Below the pieces are notes generated by a model. It did no database searches and was not told the origin of the DNA. It saw only the letters and a list, made by a program, of their open reading frames with translations. The position numbers were made by a program, and so were the translations under genes. A stretch of 64,000 nt of DNA from positions 208,202 to 272,201 of the forward strand of contig CBDDZZ010000002.1 of NCBI GenBank assembly GCA_965235975.1, given 5' to 3'. This document shows positions 35,906 to 60,082 of this stretch, one piece after another. Within the stretch, counting starts at the first letter, position 1. Every line of letters begins with the position of its first letter. The stretch comes from Candidatus Pelagibacterales bacterium. Lineage in GTDB: Bacteria; Pseudomonadota; Alphaproteobacteria; Pelagibacterales; Pelagibacteraceae.

Positions 35906-36811
35906 ATGTATTTTGTTAAAAAAACACCTTTAGAAAAAAGAGCTGACTTACAAAAGAAATTAAAAACAAAAAAACTTATTCGTTTTCCGGGAGCATATAA
36001 TCCTCTAGTTGCAAAATTAATTGAAGAAATTGGCTATGAAGGGGTTTATGTTTCTGGCGCTGTTATGGCTAATGATTTGGGAATTCCTGATATTGGTCTT
36101 ACAACTTTAGCTGAAGTTTCTTATAGAGCTGAACAAATTGCTAGAGTTACAAATCTACCCTCAATTGTTGATGCTGACACTGGATTTGGCGGACCTATGA
36201 ATTGTGCGCGAACAATTGAAACGTTTGAAAATTTTGGAATTTCAGGTTGCCACATTGAAGATCAAACTAATCCAAAAAGATGTGGGCACCTAGATAATAA
36301 AGATGTTATCAGCACAAGTGAGATGATTAAAAAAATTAAATCAGCAGTTAAAGCCAGGAAAGATAAAAACTTTTTAATTATAGCAAGGACGGATGCTAAT
36401 GCTACTGAGGGTTTAGATAAAACAATTTCAAGGGTTAAGGCTTATGTAGATGCCGGGGCAGATATGATTTTTCCTGAAGCTTTAAAAAATGAAAAAGAAT
36501 TTGAAAAAATTAGAAAAGCTACAAAAGCATATTTGCTTGCAAATATGACTGAATTTGGAAAGTCAAAATTACTTTCTGTAAAAGAACTTAGTAACCTTGG
36601 ATATAATTTAGTTATTTATCCAGTAACAACACAAAGATTAGCACTAAAAAATGTTGAGGATGGTTTAAGACAGATATTTAAAGACGGTCATCAAAATAAT
36701 GTTATTGATAAAATGCAAACTAGAAAAAGATTATATGAATTAGTTGATTATGAAAAATATAGTGAATTTGATAGCTCTATATTTAAGTTTTCTAAAAAGG
36801 GACATGAATAA
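35906..36811 (+). CDS. prpB: 2-methylisocitrate lyase
   Basis: DADTGFG, KRCGH, ARTDA, LANMTEFGK, MQTR. Confidence 0.93.
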   Translation: MYFVKKTPLEKRADLQKKLKTKKLIRFPGAYNPLVAKLIEEIGYEGVYVSGAVMANDLGIPDIGLTTLAEVSYRAEQIARVTNLPSIVDADTGFGGPMNCARTIETFENFGISGCHIEDQTNPKRCGHLDNKDVISTSEMIKKIKSAVKARKDKNFLIIARTDANATEGLDKTISRVKAYVDAGADMIFPEALKNEKEFEKIRKATKAYLLANMTEFGKSKLLSVKELSNLGYNLVIYPVTTQRLALKNVEDGLRQIFKDGHQNNVIDKMQTRKRLYELVDYEKYSEFDSSIFKFSKKGHE

Positions 36812-36813
36812 TA

Positions 36814-37941
36814 ATGGCTGAAACTGAGATTAAAAAAGGTCTAGTTGGCGTAATCGCTGATGAGACTAAAGTCTCAGAAGTAATGCCGGATATTAATTCT
36901 TTAACCTATAGAGGTTATACAGTTCAAGATCTAGCCGATGCGTGTACATTTGAAGAGGTTGCTTACTTATTATTAAAAGGGGAACTTCCTAGTAAATCGC
37001 AACTTAATAAATTTCAAGAAGAAGAAAGAAATAGTAGAAAAATAAGTGTTAATTTAAAAGAAGTTATTCAAAAATATCCAAAAAAAGCACATCCTATGGA
37101 TACAACAAGAACTTCTATTAGTCATTTAAGCTTAGAAGATAGTGAAACCTCTGTAAATACTATTGAAGCTAATTATAATAAATTTATAAAAATTTTTGCA
37201 AAAACTCCTACTGCAATTGCTGCAAATTTTAGAACAAGAAAAGGATTAGATATAATAGATCCAAAAATAGATTTAAGTTTTAGTGAAAATTTTTTTCATA
37301 TGTGCTTTGGAAAAATTCCAGGCAAAGATGTTATAAAAGCATTTGATGTTTCTTTAATTTTATACGCTGAACATAGTTTCAATGCTTCAACTTTTGCATC
37401 ACGAGTTGTAACAAGCACCCTTGCTGATATTCATAGTGCAATCATTGGAGGGATTAGTGCTTTGAAGGGTCCTTTGCATGGTGGAGCAAATGAAGCTGTT
37501 ATGGAAATGTTTTTAGATATTAAAGAGCCAGAAAATGCTGAAAAATATATTTTAAATAAAATTAAAAATAAGGATTTAATTATTGGTTTTGGCCACCGTG
37601 TTTATAAAAAAGGAGATTCTAGAGTTCCTACGATGACAAAATATTATTACAAAACCGCAGAATTTTATAAAAATGATAAATTTCCTAAAATTTCTAAAAT
37701 ATTAGAACAAACTATGATTAAAGAAAAAAATATATTTCCAAATTTAGATTTTCCATCGGGTCCCACTTATTATTTAATGGGTTTCGATGTCGATTTTTTT
37801 ACACCAATTTTTGTAATGTCGAGAATTACTGGTTGGTCAGCACACGTAAATGAACAATTAAGTGATAACAGATTAATTAGACCTCTTTCAAAATATACGG
37901 GGGCGGCCCATCGAAAAATTCAATCAATAGATAAAAGATAA
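36814..37941 (+). CDS. prpC: 2-methylcitrate synthase / citrate synthase
   Basis: LYAEHSFNASTF, GPLHGGANE, GFGHRVY, PNLDF; follows prpB. Confidence 0.9.
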   Translation: MAETEIKKGLVGVIADETKVSEVMPDINSLTYRGYTVQDLADACTFEEVAYLLLKGELPSKSQLNKFQEEERNSRKISVNLKEVIQKYPKKAHPMDTTRTSISHLSLEDSETSVNTIEANYNKFIKIFAKTPTAIAANFRTRKGLDIIDPKIDLSFSENFFHMCFGKIPGKDVIKAFDVSLILYAEHSFNASTFASRVVTSTLADIHSAIIGGISALKGPLHGGANEAVMEMFLDIKEPENAEKYILNKIKNKDLIIGFGHRVYKKGDSRVPTMTKYYYKTAEFYKNDKFPKISKILEQTMIKEKNIFPNLDFPSGPTYYLMGFDVDFFTPIFVMSRITGWSAHVNEQLSDNRLIRPLSKYTGAAHRKIQSIDKR

Positions 37942-38621: not shown

Positions 38622-39651
38622 TTACTTTGTAAACTCAAAAGCTTCAACCCATGAACCTTTTGTAGAAGCTTTAGAGTACTCTGTTGCCCTACCTTCAAAA
38701 AAGTTCATGTGCTCAACGCCATTTAACATATCATCTAACCATGTTAATGGATTTTCTTTAACTTCATAAATTTCTTTTAAACGTAATTGCGATAATCTTC
38801 TGATTTGCAATCCATCTAATATAAGTTTTAACTTGTTCAGCAGTTAAACCTTCAATATTGCCCATTTCAAACGCTAAGTCGATAAAAGCATCCTCATGGT
38901 GAACGATTGTTCTGCAAGCGTCATAGATTTCTTTTTTTAAACTTTCATCTAGCAATCCAGGATTTTCATCACAAAAAGTATTAAAAATTTTAATCATTGA
39001 GTTACAATGAAGTGTTTCATCTCTTACTGACCAAGTAACTATTTGGCCCATACCTTTCATTTTATTGAATCTTGGAAAGTTTAATAAGATCGCAAAACTT
39101 GCAAATAACTGCAAACCTTCTGTAAAAGCACTAAATACAGCAACTGTTTTTGCAATTTCTCTTTTATTATTCATATTAAAGTTTTGCATGTAATCGTACT
39201 TATCTTTCATTTCTTTGTACTTTAGAAATGCGGAATATTCTGAATCTGGCATTCCGATTGTATCTAACAAATGAGAGTAAGCAGCAATATGAACGGTTTC
39301 CATTGATGAAAACGCCGTCATCATCATTAAAACTTCTGTAGGTTTAAAAACACTTGTGTAATGTCTTAAGTAGCAATTATTTACTTCAACATCTGCTTGA
39401 GTAAAAAATCTAAAGATCTGTGTTAATAAATTTTTTTCACTTTGTGTTAATTTTTTTTGCCAATCTCTAATATCTTCAGATAAAGGAACCTCTTCAGGCA
39501 ACCAATGAATTCTTTGTTGAGTTAACCAAGCATCGTAGCACCATGGATAACGAAAAGGTTTATATACTGGATTATCTTTTAACAGACCCTGTGTATCACA
39601 ATAATTTTTATCTATAATTTTTTCTGGTATTTTAATTGCTGCTACTGACAT
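38622..39651 (-). CDS. nrdB: Class Ia ribonucleotide reductase beta subunit; +1 insertion near 38803, probably an error
   Basis: YKPFRYPW, FFTQAD, ETVHIAAY, EGLQLFASF, RDETLH; C-terminal NFFEGRATEY in the shifted frame. Confidence 0.95.
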
Positions 39652-41582
39652 GACAAACATTCCTCATAGTTAGTTGTTTTATTAGTTTCTTTTTTTTCTG
39701 CTGAACTTTCAACAAAACTTTTACTTACAACCTCTGCTCTCTGTATAGATTTCGACCTACAGTAGTAGAGGCTTTTTAGTCCTTTCTTCCACGCTTGAAA
39801 ATGTATTTGATGAAGATCTTTTTTATGAACATCTGCGGGAATAAATACATTCAATGATTGTGCTTGAGATATATAAGGAGTTCTATCTGCTGAAAGATCA
39901 ATTAACCATCTTTGATCAAGTTCAAATGCAGTCTTAAAAATATCTTTTTCTTCCTGTGTTAGAAAATTTAAATGCTGAATGGATCCTTGGTTTGTTGTGA
40001 TAGAAGACCAAACATCGCTGTTGTTTTGCCCATATTTTTCTAAAAGTTCTTCTAAAAATTTATTTCTCACATTAAATGAACCAGATAACGTTTTATGTGT
40101 ATAGCTATTTGCAGCTATAGGCTCAATTCCTGGAGAAGATCCACCGCAAATAATAGAAATAGATGCCGTTGGAGCTATTGCTGTTTTATTAGAAAATCTC
40201 TCCATAATCCCATATTCCGCAGCATCAGGGCACGCTCCTCTTTCTTCTGCTAATTTTTTTGACGCTTTATTAACTTCTTGATCGATATATTTAAAAATTT
40301 TTGTATTCCAAACTTTAGCCATGACAGATTCAAATGGAATTAAATTTTTTTGTAAGAAAGAGTGAAATCCCATAACACCTAAACCAACACTTCTTTCACG
40401 GTGTGCTGAATACTTTGCGTCTTTAAAAGAATCTGGTGCTTTTTCTATAAACTCACTTAAAATATTATCTAAAAATCTCATAATATCTTCAACAAAATTT
40501 TTATCATTCTTCCACTCATCGTAAGTTTCTAAATTTATTGACGATAAACAACAAACAGCTGTTCTATCTTTTCCATTTTTATCAATTCCTGTTGGTAAAG
40601 TAATTTCCGAACAAAGGTTTGATGTCTTAACTGTTAAGCCTGCAAGTTTATGATGCTGTGGTATCATTCTATTTACTGTGTCTATAAAAATGATGTAAGG
40701 CTCACCTGTTTCAACTCTCGCAGTTAACAATCTAATCCATAAATTTCTTGCAGAAATAGTTGCTTGGACTACTCCATCATAAGGACTTTTTAATGCCCAT
40801 TGTTCGTCAAGCTCAACAGCTCTCATGAAAGCGTCAGTAACTAAAACTCCGTGATGTAAATTTAAAGCTTTTCTATTTGGGTCGCCTCCTGTTGGTCTTC
40901 TCATCTCGATAAATTCTTCAATTTCAGGATGATCAATTTGTAAATAACATGCAGCCGATCCTCTTCTTAATGATCCTTGGCTGATTGCTAAAGTTAATGA
41001 GTCCATCACTTTAATGAATGGAATAATTCCAGAAGTTTTTCCAACTCGGCCAATTTTTTCTCCAATGGATCTTAAATTACCCCAGTAACTTCCTATTCCA
41101 CCGCCTCTTGCTGCAAGCCAAACATTTTCTGACCAAAGATCTAAAATGCCGTCTAGACTATCTGTGGCTTCATTTAAAAAACAAGATATTGGCAAACCTC
41201 TGTCCGTTCCTGCATTCGACAAAACTGGCGTTGCTGGCATGAACCAAAGGTTACTTATGTAATTATAAATTCTTTGTGCGTGTAAATTGTTATCAGCATA
41301 ATTTGCTGCAACTCTGGCAAATAAATCTTGGTAAGACTCTCCTTCTGCTAAATATCTGTCATCTAAAGTTGCTTTACCGAAATTTGTTAATTTTGAATCT
41401 TTGGATCGGTCAATCTTAATTGTGATCCCTCTTTCGTTTTGAAATAATTCTGTTTCTTTTGTTAAAGAAAAAAGATCTGGTTTTTTAAGATCCTGAACGT
41501 TAGATTTAGGAGTTGATGTTGGAATGTCGATTCCTTTATCCAAAACGAGGTTCTTGATGGCTAAAGCCAAATTATCTTGCAT
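39642..41582 (-). CDS. nrdA: Class Ia ribonucleotide reductase alpha subunit (likely start ATG at 41582; no recognisable ATP-cone)
   Basis: PATPVLSN, PISCFL, SNLCSEI, APTASIS, KSLYYCR, C-terminal CLSCQ. Confidence 0.97.
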   Translation of the reverse strand: MQDNLALAIKNLVLDKGIDIPTSTPKSNVQDLKKPDLFSLTKETELFQNERGITIKIDRSKDSKLTNFGKATLDDRYLAEGESYQDLFARVAANYADNNLHAQRIYNYISNLWFMPATPVLSNAGTDRGLPISCFLNEATDSLDGILDLWSENVWLAARGGGIGSYWGNLRSIGEKIGRVGKTSGIIPFIKVMDSLTLAISQGSLRRGSAACYLQIDHPEIEEFIEMRRPTGGDPNRKALNLHHGVLVTDAFMRAVELDEQWALKSPYDGVVQATISARNLWIRLLTARVETGEPYIIFIDTVNRMIPQHHKLAGLTVKTSNLCSEITLPTGIDKNGKDRTAVCCLSSINLETYDEWKNDKNFVEDIMRFLDNILSEFIEKAPDSFKDAKYSAHRERSVGLGVMGFHSFLQKNLIPFESVMAKVWNTKIFKYIDQEVNKASKKLAEERGACPDAAEYGIMERFSNKTAIAPTASISIICGGSSPGIEPIAANSYTHKTLSGSFNVRNKFLEELLEKYGQNNSDVWSSITTNQGSIQHLNFLTQEEKDIFKTAFELDQRWLIDLSADRTPYISQAQSLNVFIPADVHKKDLHQIHFQAWKKGLKSLYYCRSKSIQRAEVVSKSFVESSAEKKETNKTTNYEECLSCQ

Positions 41583-45163: not shown

Positions 45164-46153
45164 TTAGTTATATGTTTTTATTGAATTATGTTTAACAATA
45201 TCCAGCATATAATTAACTTTACTTACATCAGCATCTCTTACGAGCATATTATCACTTAAATATCTTTTCCAAAAATTTGCTCCATTAATTCCGTGAAACA
45301 ATCCAACTGTATGCCGCATCACTTGGTTAACCCTTGTTCCCTTTTTAACTTCCACCAGACAATATTCTACAATTTTTTTTACTATTTCTTCTCTTGAAGG
45401 AACATTGTTATTATTAAATATCTCTCTTTCAATATCTGCTAAAAAATAAGGCGAATGATAAATAGATCTACCGATCATTACTCCATCCAGGTTATTTAAA
45501 TGTTCTTTGATTTGTTCTGTAGTCGTAATTCCACCATTAATAATAATTTCTAAATTAGGATTGTTATCTTTTATTTGTTTTACAATTCTATAATTTAATT
45601 TTGGTATTCTTAAATTATCTCTTGGACTTAAGCCTTTTAAAATAGCTTTTCTTGCGTGCAAAATAATTGTTTTAACACCTGCGCTAGCTATTTTTTTTAT
45701 AAATTTATCTAAATATTCAAAATCTTCTACATCATCAAAACCTATTCTAGTTTTAACAGTCACTGGAAGTTTTGTTGAGTTCACCATTCCTGAAAGACAT
45801 TCTGCAACTAATTCAGGCTCTTTAATTAAACAAGCTCCAAACTTATTTTTCTGAACTTTTTTACTAGGGCACCCTAAATTTAAATTTATCTCATCATAAT
45901 TATAATCTTCAGCAATCCTTGATGCCTCCGACAACTCTTTTACTGAGGAGCCACCCAACTGAAGGGCAACTGGTTTTTCGAACTCACTAAATTCTAAAAC
46001 ATTTTTTTGCTTACCTTTTAATATAGCGCCTGTAGATATCATCTCAGAATAAAGCATTACATTTTTACTTATCAATCTTAGAAAATAGCGATCATGTCTG
46101 TCTGTACAGTCCATCATAGGAGCAACACAAACTTTTCTATTAACTTTAGACAT
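45164..46153 (-). CDS. dusA: tRNA dihydrouridine synthase DusA
   Basis: VAPMMDCTDRH, LQLGGS, NLNLGCPS, VKTRIG, HARKAILKGLSP. Confidence 0.93.
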   Translation of the reverse strand: MSKVNRKVCVAPMMDCTDRHDRYFLRLISKNVMLYSEMISTGAILKGKQKNVLEFSEFEKPVALQLGGSSVKELSEASRIAEDYNYDEINLNLGCPSKKVQKNKFGACLIKEPELVAECLSGMVNSTKLPVTVKTRIGFDDVEDFEYLDKFIKKIASAGVKTIILHARKAILKGLSPRDNLRIPKLNYRIVKQIKDNNPNLEIIINGGITTTEQIKEHLNNLDGVMIGRSIYHSPYFLADIEREIFNNNNVPSREEIVKKIVEYCLVEVKKGTRVNQVMRHTVGLFHGINGANFWKRYLSDNMLVRDADVSKVNYMLDIVKHNSIKTYN

Positions 46154-47453
46154 GTTCTTTTAAATTATTCATTATTGAAATTTTACCCTTATTAACAAAA
46201 TCTTCATGATTTTTAACTATTTTTTCAAGCTCATAATAGTAATTAACCATTATTCCAAAAGACTCTTTATATCCATTGGATGATAAGTCAGCATTTATCA
46301 CAATATCATAAATCGATGCGCCATTATTTAAATGAAAGTTTGCAACTCCATTTAAAGGACGATTATTAAATTTTTCTTCTGTTAAGTAATAATAAGTAAT
46401 TTTTTTTAGTATCTCTTTATTTTCTTCAATTTTTTTGTAATTAAAAGAGTCAATATTTTCATCTTTTAAAAAATATAATTGACTAGAATTATTATTCTTT
46501 AAAATACTTTTTATTTTTGTCTCTGGCTGTTTTAAAAACCATGAAGCAAGTCCTGGTATTGGAGACAAAGTGTAGAATTGTTTTACTTTTGGAAATTCTT
46601 GTTGAATTTCAAAAACAACTCTTTTGATAAGAAAATTTCCAAGAGTTATTTGCTGAAGGCCTTTATTAGAATTACTTATGGAGTAAAAAGTGACAGAGTC
46701 ATAATCATCAGTATTGCTTATGTCTCCTTCGGTAATAGCCTGTATTGAATTTCCAATGCCTTTTGTAAAAGCAACTTGGACAAAAATTAATGGTTCTTTA
46801 TCCAAGATTGGATGGAAATAAGCGTAAAATAATCTATCGTTTTCTAATCTTCTATAAAGAGCCTCTATACTTTTTATCTCGTGGACTCTCTCATTTTTAA
46901 TAATTTTCTGCAGTATGTCAGGATCAGTATCTTTTTTAATACGTGTTAACTTTAAAAAGCCTGGATTAAACCAAGATCTAAATAAATGTCTAAAATCTTT
47001 ATCTAAACTTTTAAGTTCAGGATGTTTATTTAAAAAATAAATTAAATCTTCTCTCATCTTAACTAAATATTGGGTACCATTAGGAGCTAGATTTAATCGT
47101 CTTATTAATTCCTGTCTTTTTCCCTCAGTTGCCTCATTTAAAATTTCTAAATTTGTCTCATTGTTTTTATCTATAAACGCTTTGCAGGCTTTACTTATTA
47201 TTGAATAATTTGGTTTATATTTTTTATCTATCTGTAAGAAAAAAACTTCTTTTTCTTCTAAATTTAACTTTTCATATAATTGCCAAATTTCGCGAGCAAT
47301 AGTAATGCCGGAGACTACTCCATCCTCAGATATTAATTGATCGCATAAATCAGATAGATGAGATGATGAGTCTTTTTTTTTGGTAAATAGATTTGAAAAA
47401 AGTCCTTTACCTTTATCTGCAATAAAATTTAAGAATTTTTTTAAACCCAACAT
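46146..47453 (-). CDS. matA: Malonyl-CoA decarboxylase
   Basis: RQELIRRLN, WFNPGFL, EPLIFVQVA, FYSISN, LGNFLIKRV, TLSPIPG, VANFHLNNGA, SFGIMVNY. Confidence 0.9.
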   Translation of the reverse strand: MLGLKKFLNFIADKGKGLFSNLFTKKKDSSSHLSDLCDQLISEDGVVSGITIAREIWQLYEKLNLEEKEVFFLQIDKKYKPNYSIISKACKAFIDKNNETNLEILNEATEGKRQELIRRLNLAPNGTQYLVKMREDLIYFLNKHPELKSLDKDFRHLFRSWFNPGFLKLTRIKKDTDPDILQKIIKNERVHEIKSIEALYRRLENDRLFYAYFHPILDKEPLIFVQVAFTKGIGNSIQAITEGDISNTDDYDSVTFYSISNSNKGLQQITLGNFLIKRVVFEIQQEFPKVKQFYTLSPIPGLASWFLKQPETKIKSILKNNNSSQLYFLKDENIDSFNYKKIEENKEILKKITYYYLTEEKFNNRPLNGVANFHLNNGASIYDIVINADLSSNGYKESFGIMVNYYYELEKIVKNHEDFVNKGKISIMNNLKEHV

Positions 47454-47460
47454 GGGTTTA

Positions 47461-48771
47461 TTATTTCATTACAGTGCTTGGAAGCCAAGTTGCAATTTCA
47501 GGAAAAATACAAAGTAAAACTATTTGTAAAATCATCAATAAAACAAATGGAAATGAACCTTTTAAAATTTTGCCAATTGAAATATCTGGTGCAATACCCT
47601 TTATGACAAACAAATTAAGTCCAACGGGGGGTGTAATTAGGCCTATTTCCATATTAATTGTCATAACAACTCCAAACCAAATCGGATCAAAACCTGCGGC
47701 TGTAATAATTGGATAAAGAATTGGTGCGGTCATAAGAATAATTGCAACAGGCGGTAAAAAACAACCAGCGATTAATAAAAATATATTAATGTAAAGCAAC
47801 AGCATCCATTTATTGGCTGCGATCTCAACCATTTCTTTAGCTAAAGTCTGAGTGATGTAAAGATTAGATAAAATAAAACTAAAAAGAAATGAAGCTGCTA
47901 TAATTAACATTAGCATTACGCTTTCTTTCATTGATTCTTCAAGGATTGCCCAGATATCCTTAAACCTGTACATTTTATAAATCACAGCAACTAGAATTAC
48001 ACTAATTAGCGCCCCAACAGCTGAAGCTTCATTGGGAGTTGCTATACCACCGTACAATACATAAAGAACACCAACAACTAATAAAAAAAATGGTATTATT
48101 TTTGGTAAAATTTCAAATCGTTGCTTCCATGAATATTTAATTACCTCAACTTTCTCTGAGCCTTCTCTATTTATTCTAGCGTAAACTATAGCCCAAATCA
48201 TAAACAACGCTGTAAGCATAATTCCTGGAATAATTCCTGCTATAAATAATTTACCAATTGAGGTTCCGGTCGAGATTCCATAAATGATCATTGTGATACT
48301 TGGTGGAATCAAAATTCCAAGTGTACCACCAGCGCAAATTGTTCCTGTTGCAAGCTCTGCAGAGTATCCTCGCTTTCTCATTTCAGGAATTCCCATTTTA
48401 CCAATTGCAGCGCAAGTTGCTGGAGAGGATCCACATAAAGCTGCAAAAATAGAACAGGCGCCTAAATTTGAAACAATTAAACCACCTGGAACTTTATTTA
48501 ACCATCGATCAAGTGCTGAATATAAATCTTTTCCAGCAGGAGAGGCTGCAACCGCAATGCCCATAAGCAAGAACATGGGTATAGTAACAATACCGAAATC
48601 TTGTAGTCCATTCCAAAACTGTTCAGCTAAAAGAGGAACTCTTCCAAAACCTTCGATGGCTAAAAAAAAAACTGAAGAAACTAATGCTAAACCAAATGCT
48701 ATTGGTATTCCCGTTGCAAGCACTGCTAAAGTTGCAACTACAATCCATAAAGCAAGTGTTAATGGTTCCAT
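47461..48771 (-). CDS. dctM: TRAP transporter large permease (MatM-like)
   Basis: IPMFLLMG, GTLGILIPPS, GLITPPVGLNLFV. Confidence 0.95.
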   Translation of the reverse strand: MEPLTLALWIVVATLAVLATGIPIAFGLALVSSVFFLAIEGFGRVPLLAEQFWNGLQDFGIVTIPMFLLMGIAVAASPAGKDLYSALDRWLNKVPGGLIVSNLGACSIFAALCGSSPATCAAIGKMGIPEMRKRGYSAELATGTICAGGTLGILIPPSITMIIYGISTGTSIGKLFIAGIIPGIMLTALFMIWAIVYARINREGSEKVEVIKYSWKQRFEILPKIIPFFLLVVGVLYVLYGGIATPNEASAVGALISVILVAVIYKMYRFKDIWAILEESMKESVMLMLIIAASFLFSFILSNLYITQTLAKEMVEIAANKWMLLLYINIFLLIAGCFLPPVAIILMTAPILYPIITAAGFDPIWFGVVMTINMEIGLITPPVGLNLFVIKGIAPDISIGKILKGSFPFVLLMILQIVLLCIFPEIATWLPSTVMK

Positions 48772-48773
48772 TT

Positions 48774-49274
48774 TTATTTTTTTTCTTGAGTTTCGTATTT
48801 ATAAATTACTGAAAAGATATCAGCTAAGTATTGTAAAATTAAAATACCCATGCCAAGAGGCAAAAATATATATACTTTCCACATAGGCAAAGCCCATATA
48901 GTTGGCGTTTTAATATTTTTTACCCAAGAATGAGAAAATAATTGAAGACTTGAATAGAATAAAAAAACTAAAAAAATTAATGATAGAATTGCTGCAAATA
49001 CTGCTAGGATATTCTTACCTTTTTCACTTAAATAATAAGGAATAAGATCAACATTTACATGACCTTTTTTAAGCAAAACATAAGGCGCACCGATAAATGT
49101 TGCGGCTGCTAGAGAAAAAATTACATATTCAGTTTGCCAAACAGTATTCATTTTAAAAAAATATCTTACAACTACCATTTGAGTTGTCACTAAAACTGCA
49201 GATCCAATGAGAATTGTAGAAATTATTCCACAAATTTTTGATAATGAATGAATGAATTTGATAAAGGCGAACAT
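48774..49274 (-). CDS. dctQ: TRAP transporter small permease (MatQ-like)
   Basis: VVVRY, WQTE, GHVNVD; four TM helices. Confidence 0.93.
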   Translation of the reverse strand: MFAFIKFIHSLSKICGIISTILIGSAVLVTTQMVVVRYFFKMNTVWQTEYVIFSLAAATFIGAPYVLLKKGHVNVDLIPYYLSEKGKNILAVFAAILSLIFLVFLFYSSLQLFSHSWVKNIKTPTIWALPMWKVYIFLPLGMGILILQYLADIFSVIYKYETQEKK

Positions 49275-49285
49275 TAAAATATAAC

Positions 49286-49315
49286 TTACTGGCAGATCAA
49301 ATGATCTGCCAGTAA
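49286..49315 (-). terminator. Strong stem-loop between dctP and dctQ (mRNA stabiliser or partial terminator)
   Basis: Perfect inverted repeat TTACTGGCAGATCA-AA-TGATCTGCCAGTAA. Confidence 0.75.
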
Positions 49316-49323
49316 ATTTAAAT

Positions 49324-50322
49324 TTACTTAACTGCTAATGCTTTAGCGATTAATTTATCACCACCTTTTACTTTTTCAGCAAACTTCTTGTATGAGGTTT
49401 TTTTAGCTAGTGCTATCCAAGCATTAAAGTCGGCTTCAGTCATTTGATGGATCTGAACACCCTTTTCTTTAAATACTTTTTCCATTTCACTGTCTAATTT
49501 TGCTGACTCTTTTGTTATATATTGCTCAGCTTTCTTTCCAGCAGCCAAAATTGCTTCTTTTTGTTTTGGATTTAATTTATCAAAAGATTTCTTTGACATA
49601 AGAACTGGTTGATACATAAACCAAAGTGCATACTTTCCTGGAGGTGTAATACATTTAACTTGTTCAAATAATTTAAATGATACAAAACTTTGTGAACTTG
49701 TGTTCACAGCGTTTAATACTCCTGTTTGTAAACCCTGATAAACTTCAGAGCTAGCCATTGAAGAAATTGAAGCGCCCGCTCCAACTAACATTTCTTCAAA
49801 CATAGGACCAGCTGCTCTAGTTACTTGACCTTTCATCGAGTCAGGATTTGTTACACAAGTTTTTTTTGATGCAAATCCACCTGCGAACCAAGCATCAGCC
49901 AAAACTATTGCTCCCTGATCATTAATCATTTTTTTAATGTCCTTCATGAATGGAGAAACATTAATTCTTTGTGCATGCTCATGATTTTTTACTAAACCTG
50001 GCATTAATGTAATGCTAAACTCTGGTACGAAACCAGCAGCATAATCTAATGGTAAAGAAACAAGATCAAGCTGACCTTCAACTAAAGGCTTGTATTGCTC
50101 CATTGCTTTATAAAGTGATTGACCAGGATAAACTTGAATTTTTACTCCAACATTTGCTTTTTCAAGTTCTTTTGCAAGTAGGTTCATCATTTCATCTCTT
50201 GCATCACCTTTTCCACCTGGAAATTGATGAGAAGCTTTTAAAGTGATTTGTGCAAATGAATTGCTAGCTGTAAGTATAAAAAAAATACTAAACAGCGTTG
50301 TAAATATACTCTTTATTTTCAC
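49324..50322 (-). CDS. dctP: TRAP substrate-binding protein DctP (MatP-like), GTG start
   Basis: Signal peptide; YPGQSL; conserved Arg in VTRAAG; SEVYQGLQTG; AGAGGGA RBS. Confidence 0.93.
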   Translation of the reverse strand: MKIKSIFTTLFSIFFILTASNSFAQITLKASHQFPGGKGDARDEMMNLLAKELEKANVGVKIQVYPGQSLYKAMEQYKPLVEGQLDLVSLPLDYAAGFVPEFSITLMPGLVKNHEHAQRINVSPFMKDIKKMINDQGAIVLADAWFAGGFASKKTCVTNPDSMKGQVTRAAGPMFEEMLVGAGASISSMASSEVYQGLQTGVLNAVNTSSQSFVSFKLFEQVKCITPPGKYALWFMYQPVLMSKKSFDKLNPKQKEAILAAGKKAEQYITKESAKLDSEMEKVFKEKGVQIHQMTEADFNAWIALAKKTSYKKFAEKVKGGDKLIAKALAVK

Positions 50323-50356
50323 GTGTCCCTCTTATTAGTTAATTTTAATTCGGTCT

Positions 50357-50393
50357 ATTGTGGTTTGAAAATTACCCAAGGTCAATATAAGAT
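50357..50393. promoter_or_regulatory. Overlapping divergent sigma70 promoters (dctP operon / CoA-transferase)
   Basis: Plus strand TTGAAA-17-TAAGAT ending 7 nt before ATG 50401; minus strand TTGACC-17-CACAAT. Confidence 0.5.
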
Positions 50394-50400
50394 TAACTGA

Positions 50401-51561
50401 ATGAAGAATAACTCCGGACCATTAAAAGGTATTATTGTACTTGATTTAACTAGAGTTTTAGTTGGTCCCTACTGCACAATGGTTCTCTCTGACCTTGGTG
50501 CTCGAATAATAAAAGTAGAAGCTCCTGAAACTGGAGATGATAGCAGAAGTTTTGGTCCATTTATTAAAAATTACTCAGCTTATTTTATGTCCCTCAACAG
50601 AGGTAAAGAAAGTATTGCTCTAAATTTAAAAAATAAAGAGGATAAAAAAATATTTGATAAAATATTAGCTAAAGCAGATGTGTTAGTTGAAAATTTTAGA
50701 CCAGGCACATTGGATAAATGGGGATACTCCTGGGATATTTTAAAAAAAAAATATCCTAAATTAATTTATGCATCTGCCTCAGGATTTGGTCAAACCGGTC
50801 CTTTAAAAAGCTTGCCTGCCTACGATATGGTTGTTCAAGGAATGGGTGGACTCATGAGCGTTACAGGACAGCCTGATGGAAAACCAACAAGGGTTGGAAC
50901 TTCTATTGGAGATATTACAGCAGGACTTTTTACAGCTATTGGAATTAATGCGGCTTTATTTGATAGAGAAAAAACAGGTAAAGGTACAAAAATAGATGTT
51001 TCAATGCTTGATTGTCAAATCGCAATTTTAGAAAACGCAATTGCAAGATATTTTAGTAATGGTGAGATTCCAAAACCAATGGGTTCCCGTCATCCTTCTA
51101 TAAGTCCCTTTGAAGCTTATAAAACAAAAGACAGTTTTATAATCATCGCAGCAGGTAATGATAAATTGTTTGAAAATCTTTGTAATGCTTTAGACTGTAA
51201 GGAGTATGTAAAAGATAAAAGGTTTATAAGTAATAAACTAAGGAATGCAAATGCTGAAGATTTAAAAGTAATTTTAGAAAAATATTTAATCAATGAAGTA
51301 ACTGATCATTGGATTAAATTATTCACAAAAATGAGTATCCCATGCGGTCCTATTTATAATATTAAACAAGCAGTAGAAAATCCGCAGATTGAATTTAGAA
51401 ATATGATTGTAAGTTCAAATCATAAAAAAATTGGAAAATTTAAAATGGCCGGTAATCCAATCAAGATGTCTAATTACAAAGATCCAAAAATACGTGGTGA
51501 AATTCCTGAGCTAGATCAGCACAGAAAAAAGATTTTAAAAGATTTTAAAATTAAAGTTTAA
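50401..51561 (+). CDS. CaiB/BaiF (family III) CoA-transferase, YfdE/UctC-like
   Basis: DLTRVLVGP, GARIIKVE, NRGKES, ENFRPG, PAYD catalytic Asp, RVGTSIGD, GNDKLF. Confidence 0.9.
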   Translation: MKNNSGPLKGIIVLDLTRVLVGPYCTMVLSDLGARIIKVEAPETGDDSRSFGPFIKNYSAYFMSLNRGKESIALNLKNKEDKKIFDKILAKADVLVENFRPGTLDKWGYSWDILKKKYPKLIYASASGFGQTGPLKSLPAYDMVVQGMGGLMSVTGQPDGKPTRVGTSIGDITAGLFTAIGINAALFDREKTGKGTKIDVSMLDCQIAILENAIARYFSNGEIPKPMGSRHPSISPFEAYKTKDSFIIIAAGNDKLFENLCNALDCKEYVKDKRFISNKLRNANAEDLKVILEKYLINEVTDHWIKLFTKMSIPCGPIYNIKQAVENPQIEFRNMIVSSNHKKIGKFKMAGNPIKMSNYKDPKIRGEIPELDQHRKKILKDFKIKV

Positions 51562-54180: not shown

Positions 54181-54735
54181 ATGTCTCTTACAGAAACGCC
54201 AATATGCAATTTTGGAGAAAAAATAAAAGAATTTAAATTAATATCAACTGAAGACACATTTATTTCACTTAAAGATATCAAGGGTCAAAATGGAACTTTA
54301 GTTATGTTCATTTGTAACCACTGTCCTTATGTAAAAGCTGTAATAAAAGAATTAGTTGATATTACTAATAAACTGTCAAAAATTGGCGTTAATTCAGTCG
54401 CAATAATGTCAAATGATGTAAATAATTATCCTGAAGATAGTTTTGAAAATATGAAAAAATTTGCAAAAATAAATAATTTTAAATTTCCATACTTGTACGA
54501 TGAAACTCAAAAAATTGCCCAAAATTATGGTGCAGTATGTACTCCTGATTTTTTTGGATATAATAAAAATAATGAACTGCAATATCGCGGCAGAGTTAGA
54601 GAAATGAAAAATCTTAAACCAATATTAGATGGCAAAAATGATCTTTTAAATGCAATGGAATTAATTGCTAAGACTTCAAATGGACCAGAGCAACAATTTC
54701 CTAGTATGGGCTGCAATATTAAATGGAAAAAATAA
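54181..54735 (+). CDS. Thioredoxin-fold (AhpC/TSA-like) protein
   Basis: FICNHCPYV, YPEDS, GAVCTPDFF, SMGCNIKW. Confidence 0.9.
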   Translation: MSLTETPICNFGEKIKEFKLISTEDTFISLKDIKGQNGTLVMFICNHCPYVKAVIKELVDITNKLSKIGVNSVAIMSNDVNNYPEDSFENMKKFAKINNFKFPYLYDETQKIAQNYGAVCTPDFFGYNKNNELQYRGRVREMKNLKPILDGKNDLLNAMELIAKTSNGPEQQFPSMGCNIKWKK

Positions 54736-54739
54736 TTTA

Positions 54740-55840
54740 ATGATTGTTATAATAACTAGAAGTTTTCCTCCTGAACTTGGTGGTATGCAAAGTTTAATGG
54801 GAGGTCTTGCAATACATTTAAATGCTCTTCACCCTATTAAAGTATTAGCAGACTCATTCTCAGGCGATCAAGACTATGACAAAAAAAATAATTTTGAAAC
54901 AAACAGAATGGGCGGTCTAAAAATATTAAAAAAATATAGAAAATTTAATCTTTTAAAAGAAATTATCAAAAATAATCCAATTAAAGCTATAGTTGCTGAT
55001 CACTGGAAAAGCATTGAATTAATTACTAATAATATATCAGATAAGATTCCAATTTTATGTCTTATCCACGGCAAAGAAATTAATCATCCATTTAAGTCTT
55101 TAATAAATAGAAGATCTATTAATGCGTTAGCAAAAACTAAATATATTATTGCAAATTCAGAATTTACAAAAAATTTAGCGGCTGAAAAAGGTTGTGAAGG
55201 TAATAAAGATCCATGTGATAAATCCTGGTATTAATGAGCCACAGAGCCATTAGCTCTAGAGGCAAATCGACAAGCTGAAGAAATCTTTACAAATTCTGAT
55301 ATTAAAATCATCACTGTCTCAAGATTTGATAAAAGAAAAGGAATTGATTTTTCTTTATTAGCTTTAAAAAATATCCAATCGATTTATCCAAATTTTAAAT
55401 ATGTAATAGTTGGAAGTGGGGATGAAGAAGAAAATCTAAAGAAAACTGCTAAAAATTTAAACTTAGAAAAAAATGTAACATTTCTAAAAAATATAAGCTT
55501 AGAATTAAAGAATGCTCTAATTAAAAATTCTAATATTTTTTTAATGCCTGCAAGAATTGAGGGAACTTCCGTGGAGGGTTTTGGAATTAGTTATATTGAA
55601 GCTGCAAGTTATGGAATTCCATCTATTGCTGGAAAAGACGGCGGAGCTCCAGATGCAGTCAAACATAATCAAACTGGTTTATTATGTAATGGATATGACC
55701 ACGCTGAAATTTATGATGCTTTAAAAAATATGATTGAAAATAGAAAATATTTAGAACTAGGAAAGAATGCAAAAGAATTCGCTAAACAATTTTACTGGAA
55801 AGAAATAATTAAAAAATATGCCAATCTTCTTAATTTATAA
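54740..55840 (+). CDS. Glycosyltransferase family 4; indels near 55205-55255
   Basis: FPPELGGMQ, HGKE, ANSEFT, VSRFDKRKG, EGFGISYIEA, GGAPDAV across frames. Confidence 0.85.
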
Positions 55841-56770: not shown

Positions 56771-57169
56771 ATGAAAATTACAAAAAAAATTTATTCAGAA
56801 TTATCAGCTGGTGAGTTATTTGATAAAATCTCAATTCTTGAGATAAAAAAAAATAAAATTAAAGATAAAGATAAAAGAAATATTGTCTTAAAAGAACTTA
56901 GTTCCCTGCAAGAAACTGCTTCTGAAAATATTAAAAAATCAAAATCAATTACAAAATTATACAAAAAGCTTAAATTTATTAATCTTAAACTGTGGAAAAT
57001 TGAGGATGATATTAGAGATTGTGAGAGAAAAAGAAATTTTGGGGACAAGTTTATAAAACTAGCAAGAGCAGTTTATTTTACTAACGATGAAAGATCACTT
57101 GTTAAAAATAAGATTAACAAATTAACAAAATCAAATATTTCTGAAGTAAAAAGCTATAAGAAATATTAA
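56771..57169 (+). CDS. DUF6165-like protein
   Basis: SAGELFDKISILEIK, LWKIEDDIR, LARAVYFTNDER, EVKSY. Confidence 0.8.
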   Translation: MKITKKIYSELSAGELFDKISILEIKKNKIKDKDKRNIVLKELSSLQETASENIKKSKSITKLYKKLKFINLKLWKIEDDIRDCERKRNFGDKFIKLARAVYFTNDERSLVKNKINKLTKSNISEVKSYKKY

Positions 57170-57965
57170 TTAGATTTAAGACTTGGAATTATAGCTCTTA
57201 ATTTTTTTGGAAGGTTTTCATCTATTCTTGCAATAATAAAGCCCTCTCCCTTTTCTTTTTCTTTTAATATTTCACCATCAGGTGAAATAATTAAAGAATG
57301 GCCGTATGTTAATCTATTATTGTAATGTTTTCCCGTTTGTGCGGCAGCAAATATATAAGAAAAATTTTCAATAGCCCTAGCTTTCAAGTAAAGTATGCCA
57401 ATGTTTTTCTCCTGTTGTTTTTGTAAAAGCTGAAGGAACTGTAATAAAAATTGCTCCTTTTTTTGCAAGCTCTCTATATAAATTTGGAAAACGAACATCG
57501 TAACAAATACTAAAACCTAGTAAACCCCAAGGTAATTTTGCTAAAACTTTTTTTTTACCTGCTAAAAATTTTTTTAGACTCTTCATACCTTTCCTTATTT
57601 GAAAGTTTAACATCGAACATATGAATTTTATCATAGTAGTTTGCAATTTTTCCATTTGGATTAAAAAGTACAGATCTATTAGCTAATAATTTTCTAGATA
57701 ACTTTATCGGTAATGATCCAATTAAAATCCACTTTTTATAACTTTTTGAAATTTTACTTATAGATTCTAAAAAAAAATTATTATTCATCTTTTCTGTTTT
57801 TTCTAAAAGTTCACTATGATCTAATGTAAATAATGATGTATTTTCTGGAGTAATAATTAAATCAGCTTTCTTCTTAATAGAATTAATTATTAAATCTGTT
57901 GTTTTTTCTAAATTAGAAAAAACATTATTGTCTGAGGTGAGTTGAATACATGAAACGTTAAACAT
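57166..57965 (-). CDS. Carbon-nitrogen hydrolase (Nit1-like); two frameshifts, probably errors
   Basis: TPEN, YDKIHMFDV, ICYDVRFP, PSAFT..TGEKHW, ARAIEN, YGHS across three ORFs. Confidence 0.9.
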
Positions 57966-58944: not shown

Positions 58945-60082
58945 TTACTCTGTAGCTCTTATCCAGCCACCTCCAAGAACTCTCACGCCTAATTGGTCAG
59001 GCTTATAAAATACACAAGCCTGCCCCGGAGATACCCCAAACTCACTTTTTTCAAAAGTGATCATTCCAGTTTTAACATCAAGCTTTGACTCTATAAGTTT
59101 TCCAGTAGATCTAACTTTAACAAATATACTCTCATTAAAATCATTATTCTTATCTGAGAGATAATTAATATCTTCAACCCTTAATTTTTTAATTTCTAAT
59201 TCTTCTTTTTTTCCAATGATCACTTCTTTTGTTTTAGGATTAATTTTAATTACATAATAAGGAATTTCTCCAGAAATCTTTATTCCTTTTCTTTGTCCAA
59301 TAGTGAAATTAATAATTCCCTCATGTTTTCCTAAAACATTTCCCTTGGTATCAATTATATTTCCAGGTTCATGGGCCTCTGGTCTTAAACGTTCAATAAC
59401 AGAAACATAATTACCATTAGGTACAAAACAAATATCTTGGCTATCTGGTTTATCAGCAACTTCTAAATTTAGTTTTTTTGCAATATTTCGTGTCTCTTCT
59501 TTTGGCAGATCCCCTAAGAGGAAAATGTAAGTAATTAAGTTGCTCCTGCGTTGTTGCGAATAAAAAATAAGTTTGATCACGATTTAAATCCTTAGGTCTG
59601 TACATTTTAGATATTTTATTATCTATAATTTTTTTTACATAATGACCGGTAATTAATGCATCCGCCTTTAGGTTTTTAGCTGACTCAAATAAATCCCTAA
59701 ACTTGACGGTTTGATTACAATTTACACAAGGAATAGGCGTTTCTCCTCTTAGATAAGAATCTGCAAACTTTTCTATAACTTCACTCTTAAATTTACTTTC
59801 ATAATTTAGAACATAATGATCAATTTCTAATTTTTCCGAAACTCTCTTTGCATCATAAATATCTTGCCCAGCACAACATGTTCCTGGTTTTTTATTAATT
59901 TGTGCATAATCATAAAGTTGCAAAGTCATACCAATTACTTGATAACCACTCATTTTCATCAAACCTGCGACAACGGAAGAATCAACACCACCCGACATGG
60001 CAACAACAACTTTTGTCTCACTCGGTGGTTTATCTAATCCTAATAAATTATTATTAGATTTTGTTTTAAGTAAAGTTGTCAT
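58945..60082 (-). CDS. mnmA: tRNA 2-thiouridylase MnmA; +1 insertion near 59518, probably an error
   Basis: [52 protein letters not shown]. Confidence 0.95.

Follow-up and report, generated by a model that had tools for sequence, protein, structure and literature searches.

In Sinorhizobium meliloti, the matPQMAB genes are tied genetically to growth on malonate (PMC5237526, available in part). They encode a tripartite ATP-independent periplasmic (TRAP) importer (MatPQM), a malonyl coenzyme A (malonyl-CoA) decarboxylase (MCD; MatA), and the malonate activator MatB. The family III CoA-transferases YfdE of Escherichia coli and UctC of Acetobacter aceti use acetyl-CoA as their donor, and with succinyl-CoA and oxalate they gave no product (PMC3720670, partial text). 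Here we describe a locus in 64,000 nucleotides of contig CBDDZZ010000002.1 (positions 208,202 to 272,201; assembly GCA_965235975.1) from a Candidatus Pelagibacterales bacterium. We call this whole stretch the window. The locus combines a MatPQM-type importer and an MCD with a divergent family III CoA-transferase, and it is probably a malonate module in which the transferase is a nonorthologous replacement of MatB. That the transferase activates malonate, whatever the donor, seems quite likely. We give a probability of roughly 60% to the joint version, in which malonate would enter through the TRAP importer, receive CoA from acetyl-CoA, and be converted by MCD to acetyl-CoA and CO2.

The five open reading frames (ORFs) are all intact. 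On the minus strand lie dctP (49324..50322; 332 amino acids [aa] with a GTG start; PF03480), which encodes a MatP-type solute-binding protein, dctQ (48774..49274; 166 aa; PF04290), which encodes the MatQ-type small permease, dctM (47461..48771; 436 aa; PF06808, and TIGR00786 over its cut-off), which encodes the MatM-type large permease, and a matA-type MCD gene (46146..47453; 435 aa; PF05292 and PF17408). The intergenic gaps are 49 bp (dctP-dctQ), 2 bp (dctQ-dctM), and 7 bp (dctM-MCD), and the end of the MCD gene shares 8 bp with the beginning of dusA. The transferase gene (50401..51561, plus strand; 386 aa; PF02515 at 415.6 bits, over the cut-off) points the other way across a 78-bp spacer (50323..50400). 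An earlier interpretation made from the letters alone, here called the sequence-only reading, had described this same arrangement.

DctP is 62.7% identical to an S. meliloti 1021 pSymA protein that heads a dctP-dctQ-dctM-MCD-MatB run. The record is without annotation, and the name matPQMAB was given by gene content and PMC5237526. The P-Q-M-MCD order is the same in both organisms, with identities of 60 to 63, 36, 56, and 36%. However, S. meliloti has MatB and GntR and the window locus has neither, and the divergent slot holds a GntR-like ORF there (judged by eye) and the family III CoA-transferase here. In genome G248, a GntR-like ORF and MatB are on the divergent side, where the transferase sits in the window.

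The best PDB match of DctP is Rfer_1840 (4MCO/4MEV), with an E value of 1.5e-64, compared with 4e-19 for the next match. It is also the best fold match (Z 35.6; root mean square deviation 2.9; 303 aligned residues), yet it is only 34% identical to DctP. We take the ligand bound in these Rfer_1840 structures to be malonate. The MCD aligns with the bacterial MCD structures 4ksf and 4ksa (E values of 1e-84 and 1e-82) motif for motif. Its Ser297 and His374 sit in the conserved motifs of the Ser-His catalytic dyad described in PMC3701320 (available in part), and its gene directly follows matM, as in matPQMAB.

MatB and the transferase across genomes

The assembly is 923 kb in size and 88.4% complete. 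We take the host to be Fonsibacter-like (LD12), because the closest transferases (92 to 97% identical) belong to Ca. Fonsibacter or to Pelagibacterales of the same group. The genome has three AMP-binding loci, which encode Acs, a PrpE-like ligase, and a frameshifted long-chain-type ligase. The displayed scores of such loci against the MatB model NF005702 were 133 and 140 bits versus a cut-off of 558, and a genome-wide search with this model gave no match at an E value of ≤1e-60. The absence of matB that the sequence-only reading had noted nearby thus holds for the whole assembly. Because the genome is incomplete, this absence leans also on the 36 relatives sampled from the same family, some of them 98 to 100% complete: MatB passed the cut-off in 0 of the 37 genomes. 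A regulator had likewise been found missing nearby, and GntR (PF00392) had no match in any of five genomes tested. The profile for MdcA (TIGR01110) found nothing in the three genomes G000, G003, and G032. The family III CoA-transferase gene is the only one in the assembly.

MCD was over the cut-off in 22 of the 36 relatives (these tallies take in the unpublished genome G014, on which none of our conclusions depends). All 22 also have the transferase, and in 21 of them the two genes share a contig within about 5 kb. Among other genera, five have all three markers (MCD, the transferase, and this DctP) and eleven have none. The sister family f2 (G037-G060; L087, L088), by contrast, has MatB over the cut-off in 21 of 24 genomes, MCD in 0 of 24, and MatP-type DctP in none. 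The accessible part of PMC12636525 describes SAR11 MCD as being under strong purifying selection offshore. Its supplement gives MCD and the transferase (as yfdE) an identical distribution over 11 genera, but it files MCD under malonyl-CoA and the transferase under formate/oxalate, and the part available does not join them.

We then searched 301 Alphaproteobacteria genomes for MCD, MatB, the transferase (E value of ≤1e-105), DctP, and Oxc. Misses are possible, because only the top 4 to 8 candidates per genome were scored. MCD was found in 101 genomes. MatB without the transferase occurs in 41 of these, the transferase without MatB in 43, both in 6, and neither in 11 (Fisher P of 7e-12, not corrected for kinship). 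The counts were the same at 1e-105, 1e-120, and 1e-130. With one genome per family (n = 59), the numbers were 24, 23, 4, and 8, respectively (P of 5e-6). Three families (f29, f67, and f146) each contain one MatB genome and one transferase genome. MCD occurs in 47 of 77 MatB genomes and 49 of 90 transferase genomes, but in 11 of 145 genomes with neither. All 29 genomes with this type of DctP have MatB or the transferase, versus 156 of 301 overall.

Fusion proteins associate the same enzymes. The partners in 103 MCD homologues of 763 aa or more were AMP-binding ligases (65), family III transferases (22), MdcA-type domains (2), and others (14). The one ligase fusion checked scores as MatB, and one MdcA-type fusion reached 733 bits versus a cut-off of 789. 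Malonate activation is therefore an established role for two of the three main types of partner. The third type resembles the window protein: 19 of the 22 fused transferase domains are 54 to 59% identical to it and keep the Asp and the His. Transferase-MCD fusions exist in both domain orders; one order comes from a single cluster, and the two fall in different parts of a quick tree.

Several observations weigh against the proposed pathway. Among the best 80 of 517 loci surveyed, 36 have MCD next to TRAP, 6 have it one or two genes away, 7 are cut short, and 2 are missing TRAP. In the remaining 29, dusA comes straight after TRAP and the transferase, and the locus contains no MCD. An MCD elsewhere shows up in only 3 of these 29 genomes, although the other 26 are assemblies of 0.8 to 1.2 Mb. 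The transferase is thus linked more closely with the importer than with MCD, and this is the chief result against a simple three-step pathway. Across the 301 genomes, 41 of the 90 with the transferase lack MCD, and MdcA was not found in the 36 of these 41 that were tested. As a partial offset, MCD is likewise absent from 30 of the 77 MatB genomes, 3 of which have matPQM plus matB, so a lack of MCD is not peculiar to transferase genomes. Outside SAR11, MCD adjoins 4 of 40 transferase loci and this TRAP adjoins none. The usual neighbors there are penicillin amidase, hemB, and aldehyde dehydrogenase. Three of the 22 fused transferase domains (P0155, P0166, and P0171) are degenerate; none of them has the loop His, and in two the catalytic Asp is replaced by Glu. 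Finally, both malonate transfer and malonate binding by DctP are predictions from sequence.

The persistence of the transferase without MCD in many genomes, mostly unlinked outside SAR11, and the two surveyed loci without TRAP would also suit an enzyme that recycles short-chain acyl-CoA in general and acts mainly on some unrelated substrate, its SAR11 placement being inherited synteny. We consider this very unlikely. Inherited synteny leaves unexplained the exclusion of MatB across families, the fusions in both orders, and the separate MCD-transferase adjacency in families f35 and f115. Orthology, gene order, complementarity with MatB, and the fusions all favor the core of what the sequence-only reading proposed, namely, a MatB-independent activation of malonate followed by MatA decarboxylation. 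Its placement of the transferase within YfdE/UctC did not hold, as described below.

The acceptor of the transferase

E. coli YfdE is the top PDB and NCBIfam match of the transferase. The two proteins are 45% identical, and Asp171 and His231 of the transferase align with Asp173 and His233 of YfdE. The sequence-only reading had seen a motif-by-motif match. However, the transferase scores 426 bits with the YfdE model NF008511, below the cut-off of 522, and E. coli YfdE itself scores 884. The loops also differ. A GNxH loop has been proposed as a mark of oxalate specificity (PMC3720670), and the window type has GSRH in all 80 SAR11 loci and, outside SAR11, mostly GARH. The GNxH motif is not exclusive, because three distant homologues also carry GNRH and the 9 kb retrieved for them contains no oxc. 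The smaller loop residue would suit a substrate that is one carbon longer. One genome (G125) encodes a true YfdE (68%, GNRH, next to frc-oxc) and, separately, a window-type transferase. FastTree sets YfdE apart from the transferase clade with a support of 90 (unstarred), although a quick tree fails to separate them. By sequence, then, the transferase is a sister paralogue of YfdE/UctC and not a member of that group.

These data bear on the database label, under which the protein is an acetyl-CoA:oxalate CoA-transferase and the TRAP system would import oxalate. The top-match status of YfdE agrees with the label, the orthologues are named CoA:oxalate CoA-transferase by JGI, and the formate/oxalate heading mentioned above follows the same assignment. 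Yet the invariant GSRH loop of SAR11 and the coexistence of both types in G125 argue otherwise. A linkage to oxc and frc was not seen: no oxc was over the cut-off in the five SAR11 genomes searched, where the best match lies upstream of ilvH/ilvC-like ORFs, and the window's assembly has the one family III gene alone. Moreover, oxc occurs in only 7 of the 90 transferase genomes. The genome of the window has no orthologue of oxalate-CoA ligase or of a PanE-type reductase, and 26 MCD-less marine genomes have no close PanE-type match. We therefore regard oxalate as a highly improbable main substrate.

Some marine SAR11 genomes have a separate candidate route for oxalate. All six loci examined (L246:7868-10391 in G061, Ca. 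Pelagibacter sp. Uisw_136, and L265-L270) pair a homologue of oxalate-CoA ligase (E value of 3e-122 to 5ie0) with a reductase of the PanE/ApbA family. Of the 21 marine genomes whose loci are MCD-adjacent, 19 have this reductase. We take the reductase assignment from Methylobacterium. The pair may convert oxalate through oxalyl-CoA to glyoxylate and so supply glycine.

Methylmalonate, or another substituted malonate, could also be the main substrate; decarboxylation of its CoA ester would then yield propionyl-CoA for the methylcitrate cycle. The prpB and prpC genes of that cycle lie 8 kb from the module (window 35906-37941), the genome has the PrpE-like ligase, and methylmalonyl-CoA mutase was not found in five of five genomes. 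MatB presumably accepts methylmalonate as well. However, the importer matches the S. meliloti system tied to malonate growth (PMC5237526), prpBC lies outside the conserved block, and the MCD-less genomes stay unexplained by this substrate too. This alternative appears distinctly unlikely, and malonate remains our preferred acceptor. The accessible text of PMC3720670 does not mention malonate among the YfdE and UctC assays.

Expression signals and neighboring genes

A 16-bp stem-loop (49283..49318, minus strand; -24.7 kcal/mol, z -8.4) lies between dctP and dctQ. A fold below -10 kcal/mol is present at this spot in all 72 loci that have both genes, a count made without a shuffle control. The stem-loop is likely to be a partial terminator or a stabilizer that favors dctP mRNA. 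An 8-bp hairpin over the dctM stop and MCD start (window 47442-47460, minus strand) is weak (z -2.0). Promoters of both directions should sit in the 78-bp spacer. Both of its strands carry sigma-70-like sites, yet the total from the scan is what chance would give (37 versus 34 ± 6), and inspection of the spacers by eye revealed no regulator site. Metatranscriptome contigs from four runs in four studies contain parts of dctP, dctM, and the transferase gene in every run, and three of the runs also cover the MCD body; such contigs give no level, strand, or proof of a single transcript, and DNA carry-over is possible.

The sequence-only reading had extended the module to a wider C2/C3 acid neighborhood with a serine-glyoxylate aminotransferase and a beta-hydroxyacid dehydrogenase. 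The comparisons do not support this extension. The 99% complete genome G015 keeps the dehydrogenase-rpoZ pair although the transferase, dctQ, dctM, and MCD are gone. What remains there is an orphan dctP between rpoZ and dusA (L080:8594-9589), and its product has diverged near the conserved Arg (RVE for RAA). The aminotransferase gene is missing from the stretches fetched from G012 and G015, and elsewhere it goes with a different TRAP/transferase block. This second block consists of a 979-aa FAD/Fe-S oxidoreductase, the aminotransferase, a second TRAP system, an enoyl-CoA-hydratase-like ORF (by eye), and a family III transferase that is 42% identical to the first and has the loop GSAH. It is found in G032 (L073:13632-20000 and L074:569-6624) and also in G034, G013, and G007. 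The window retains only the aminotransferase, which is 75% identical to the G003 copy, compared with 95 to 99% for the neighboring genes.

Around the transferase genes outside SAR11 (loci L175-L214), a PALP-family enzyme is also frequent. The aldehyde dehydrogenase lies directly 3' of the transferase in 4 of 40 loci and reaches no NCBIfam cut-off. Several housekeeping-type genes appear by eye to be split or truncated (nrdB-, glycosyltransferase-, nitrilase-, mnmA-, and fadD-like; window 38764-39660, 54665-55234, 57166-57965, and 58945-60082; L003:1271-2979). They probably reflect assembly indels, and the module genes are unaffected.

The proposed pathway and known systems

From these observations we infer a ligand, an acceptor, a donor, and a flux. 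The TRAP system would import malonate, and the transferase would shift CoA from acetyl-CoA onto it. MCD would turn the resulting malonyl-CoA into acetyl-CoA and CO2, which regenerates the donor. The net reaction would be malonate to acetate and CO2, with one acetate per malonate, and the acetate would enter metabolism through the genome's Acs. In MCD-less lineages, malonyl-CoA would instead feed fatty acid synthesis.

The sequence-only reading had concluded that activation needs no ATP. This would be true of the loop itself, which spends none. By stoichiometry, however, it would not be true overall with acetyl-CoA as donor, because reuse of the acetate needs Acs and costs ATP to AMP. Therefore, the transferase plus Acs would equal MatB in function and cost. 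A real ATP saving requires succinyl-CoA as donor. In that variant of the pathway, with succinyl-CoA or another acyl-CoA as donor, the net product would be acetyl-CoA. The price would be one forgone substrate-level phosphorylation, one ATP equivalent below MatB, which would be a real saving for a streamlined cell. SucD is present in five of five genomes tested, and next in line among the NCBIfam matches of the transferase are family III enzymes that use succinyl-CoA (334 and 314 bits). However, the YfdE model scores higher (426 bits), and the nearest assayed relatives gave no product with succinyl-CoA and oxalate or with acetyl-CoA and succinate (PMC3720670, Table 1). We consider this variant unlikely and prefer acetyl-CoA as the donor.

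We suggest, with moderate confidence, that a wide and so far unassayed family III clade, marked by a G(S/A)RH loop, comprises free-standing malonate CoA-transferases (EC 2.8.3.3) that are as common as MatB as partners of MCD in Alphaproteobacteria. By the same argument, LD12, the dominant lake bacterium, and many marine SAR11 lineages would consume malonate, and some of the "oxalate metabolism" ascribed to SAR11 would be mislabeled. The named strains HTCC9565 and Uisw_127 also carry the genes. EC 2.8.3.3 is listed without a KEGG function number (PMC8307300, available in part). In a literature search in which subscription papers were largely outside reach, there was no description of a family III malonate CoA-transferase or of malonate use by SAR11. 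The term "malon" is absent from the main texts of two 2026 SAR11 preprints and the LD12 isolate paper, and a search on photochemical malonate in lakes, a possible environmental source, gave no paper with "malonic acid." If our proposal is correct, a third route of malonate activation, distinct from those of MatB and MdcA, gains a gene, and a transferase type present in 90 of 301 sampled Alphaproteobacteria gains a function. The proposal would also add malonate to the short list of SAR11 substrates and correct the published oxalate reading (PMC12636525, as far as its accessible part goes). The ceiling of importance is moderate, because the importer and decarboxylase are already known and the ATP saving may be nil.

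The new part is the transferase as a probable replacement of MatB. Its nearest assayed relatives, YfdE and UctC, share the family III assignment, the catalytic Asp, and the loop His, but the window type tracks MCD and not oxc. In its chemistry, the proposed loop is closest to the Mdc system of Pseudomonas (MdcA/MdcC/MdcDE; PMC5534430, available in part) and to EC 2.8.3.3. In both Mdc and the proposed loop, an acetyl group is exchanged for a malonyl group and decarboxylation follows, with malonate converted to acetate and CO2 overall. However, Mdc uses a dedicated acyl carrier protein where the window pathway would use free CoA, and the proteins of the two systems are unrelated.

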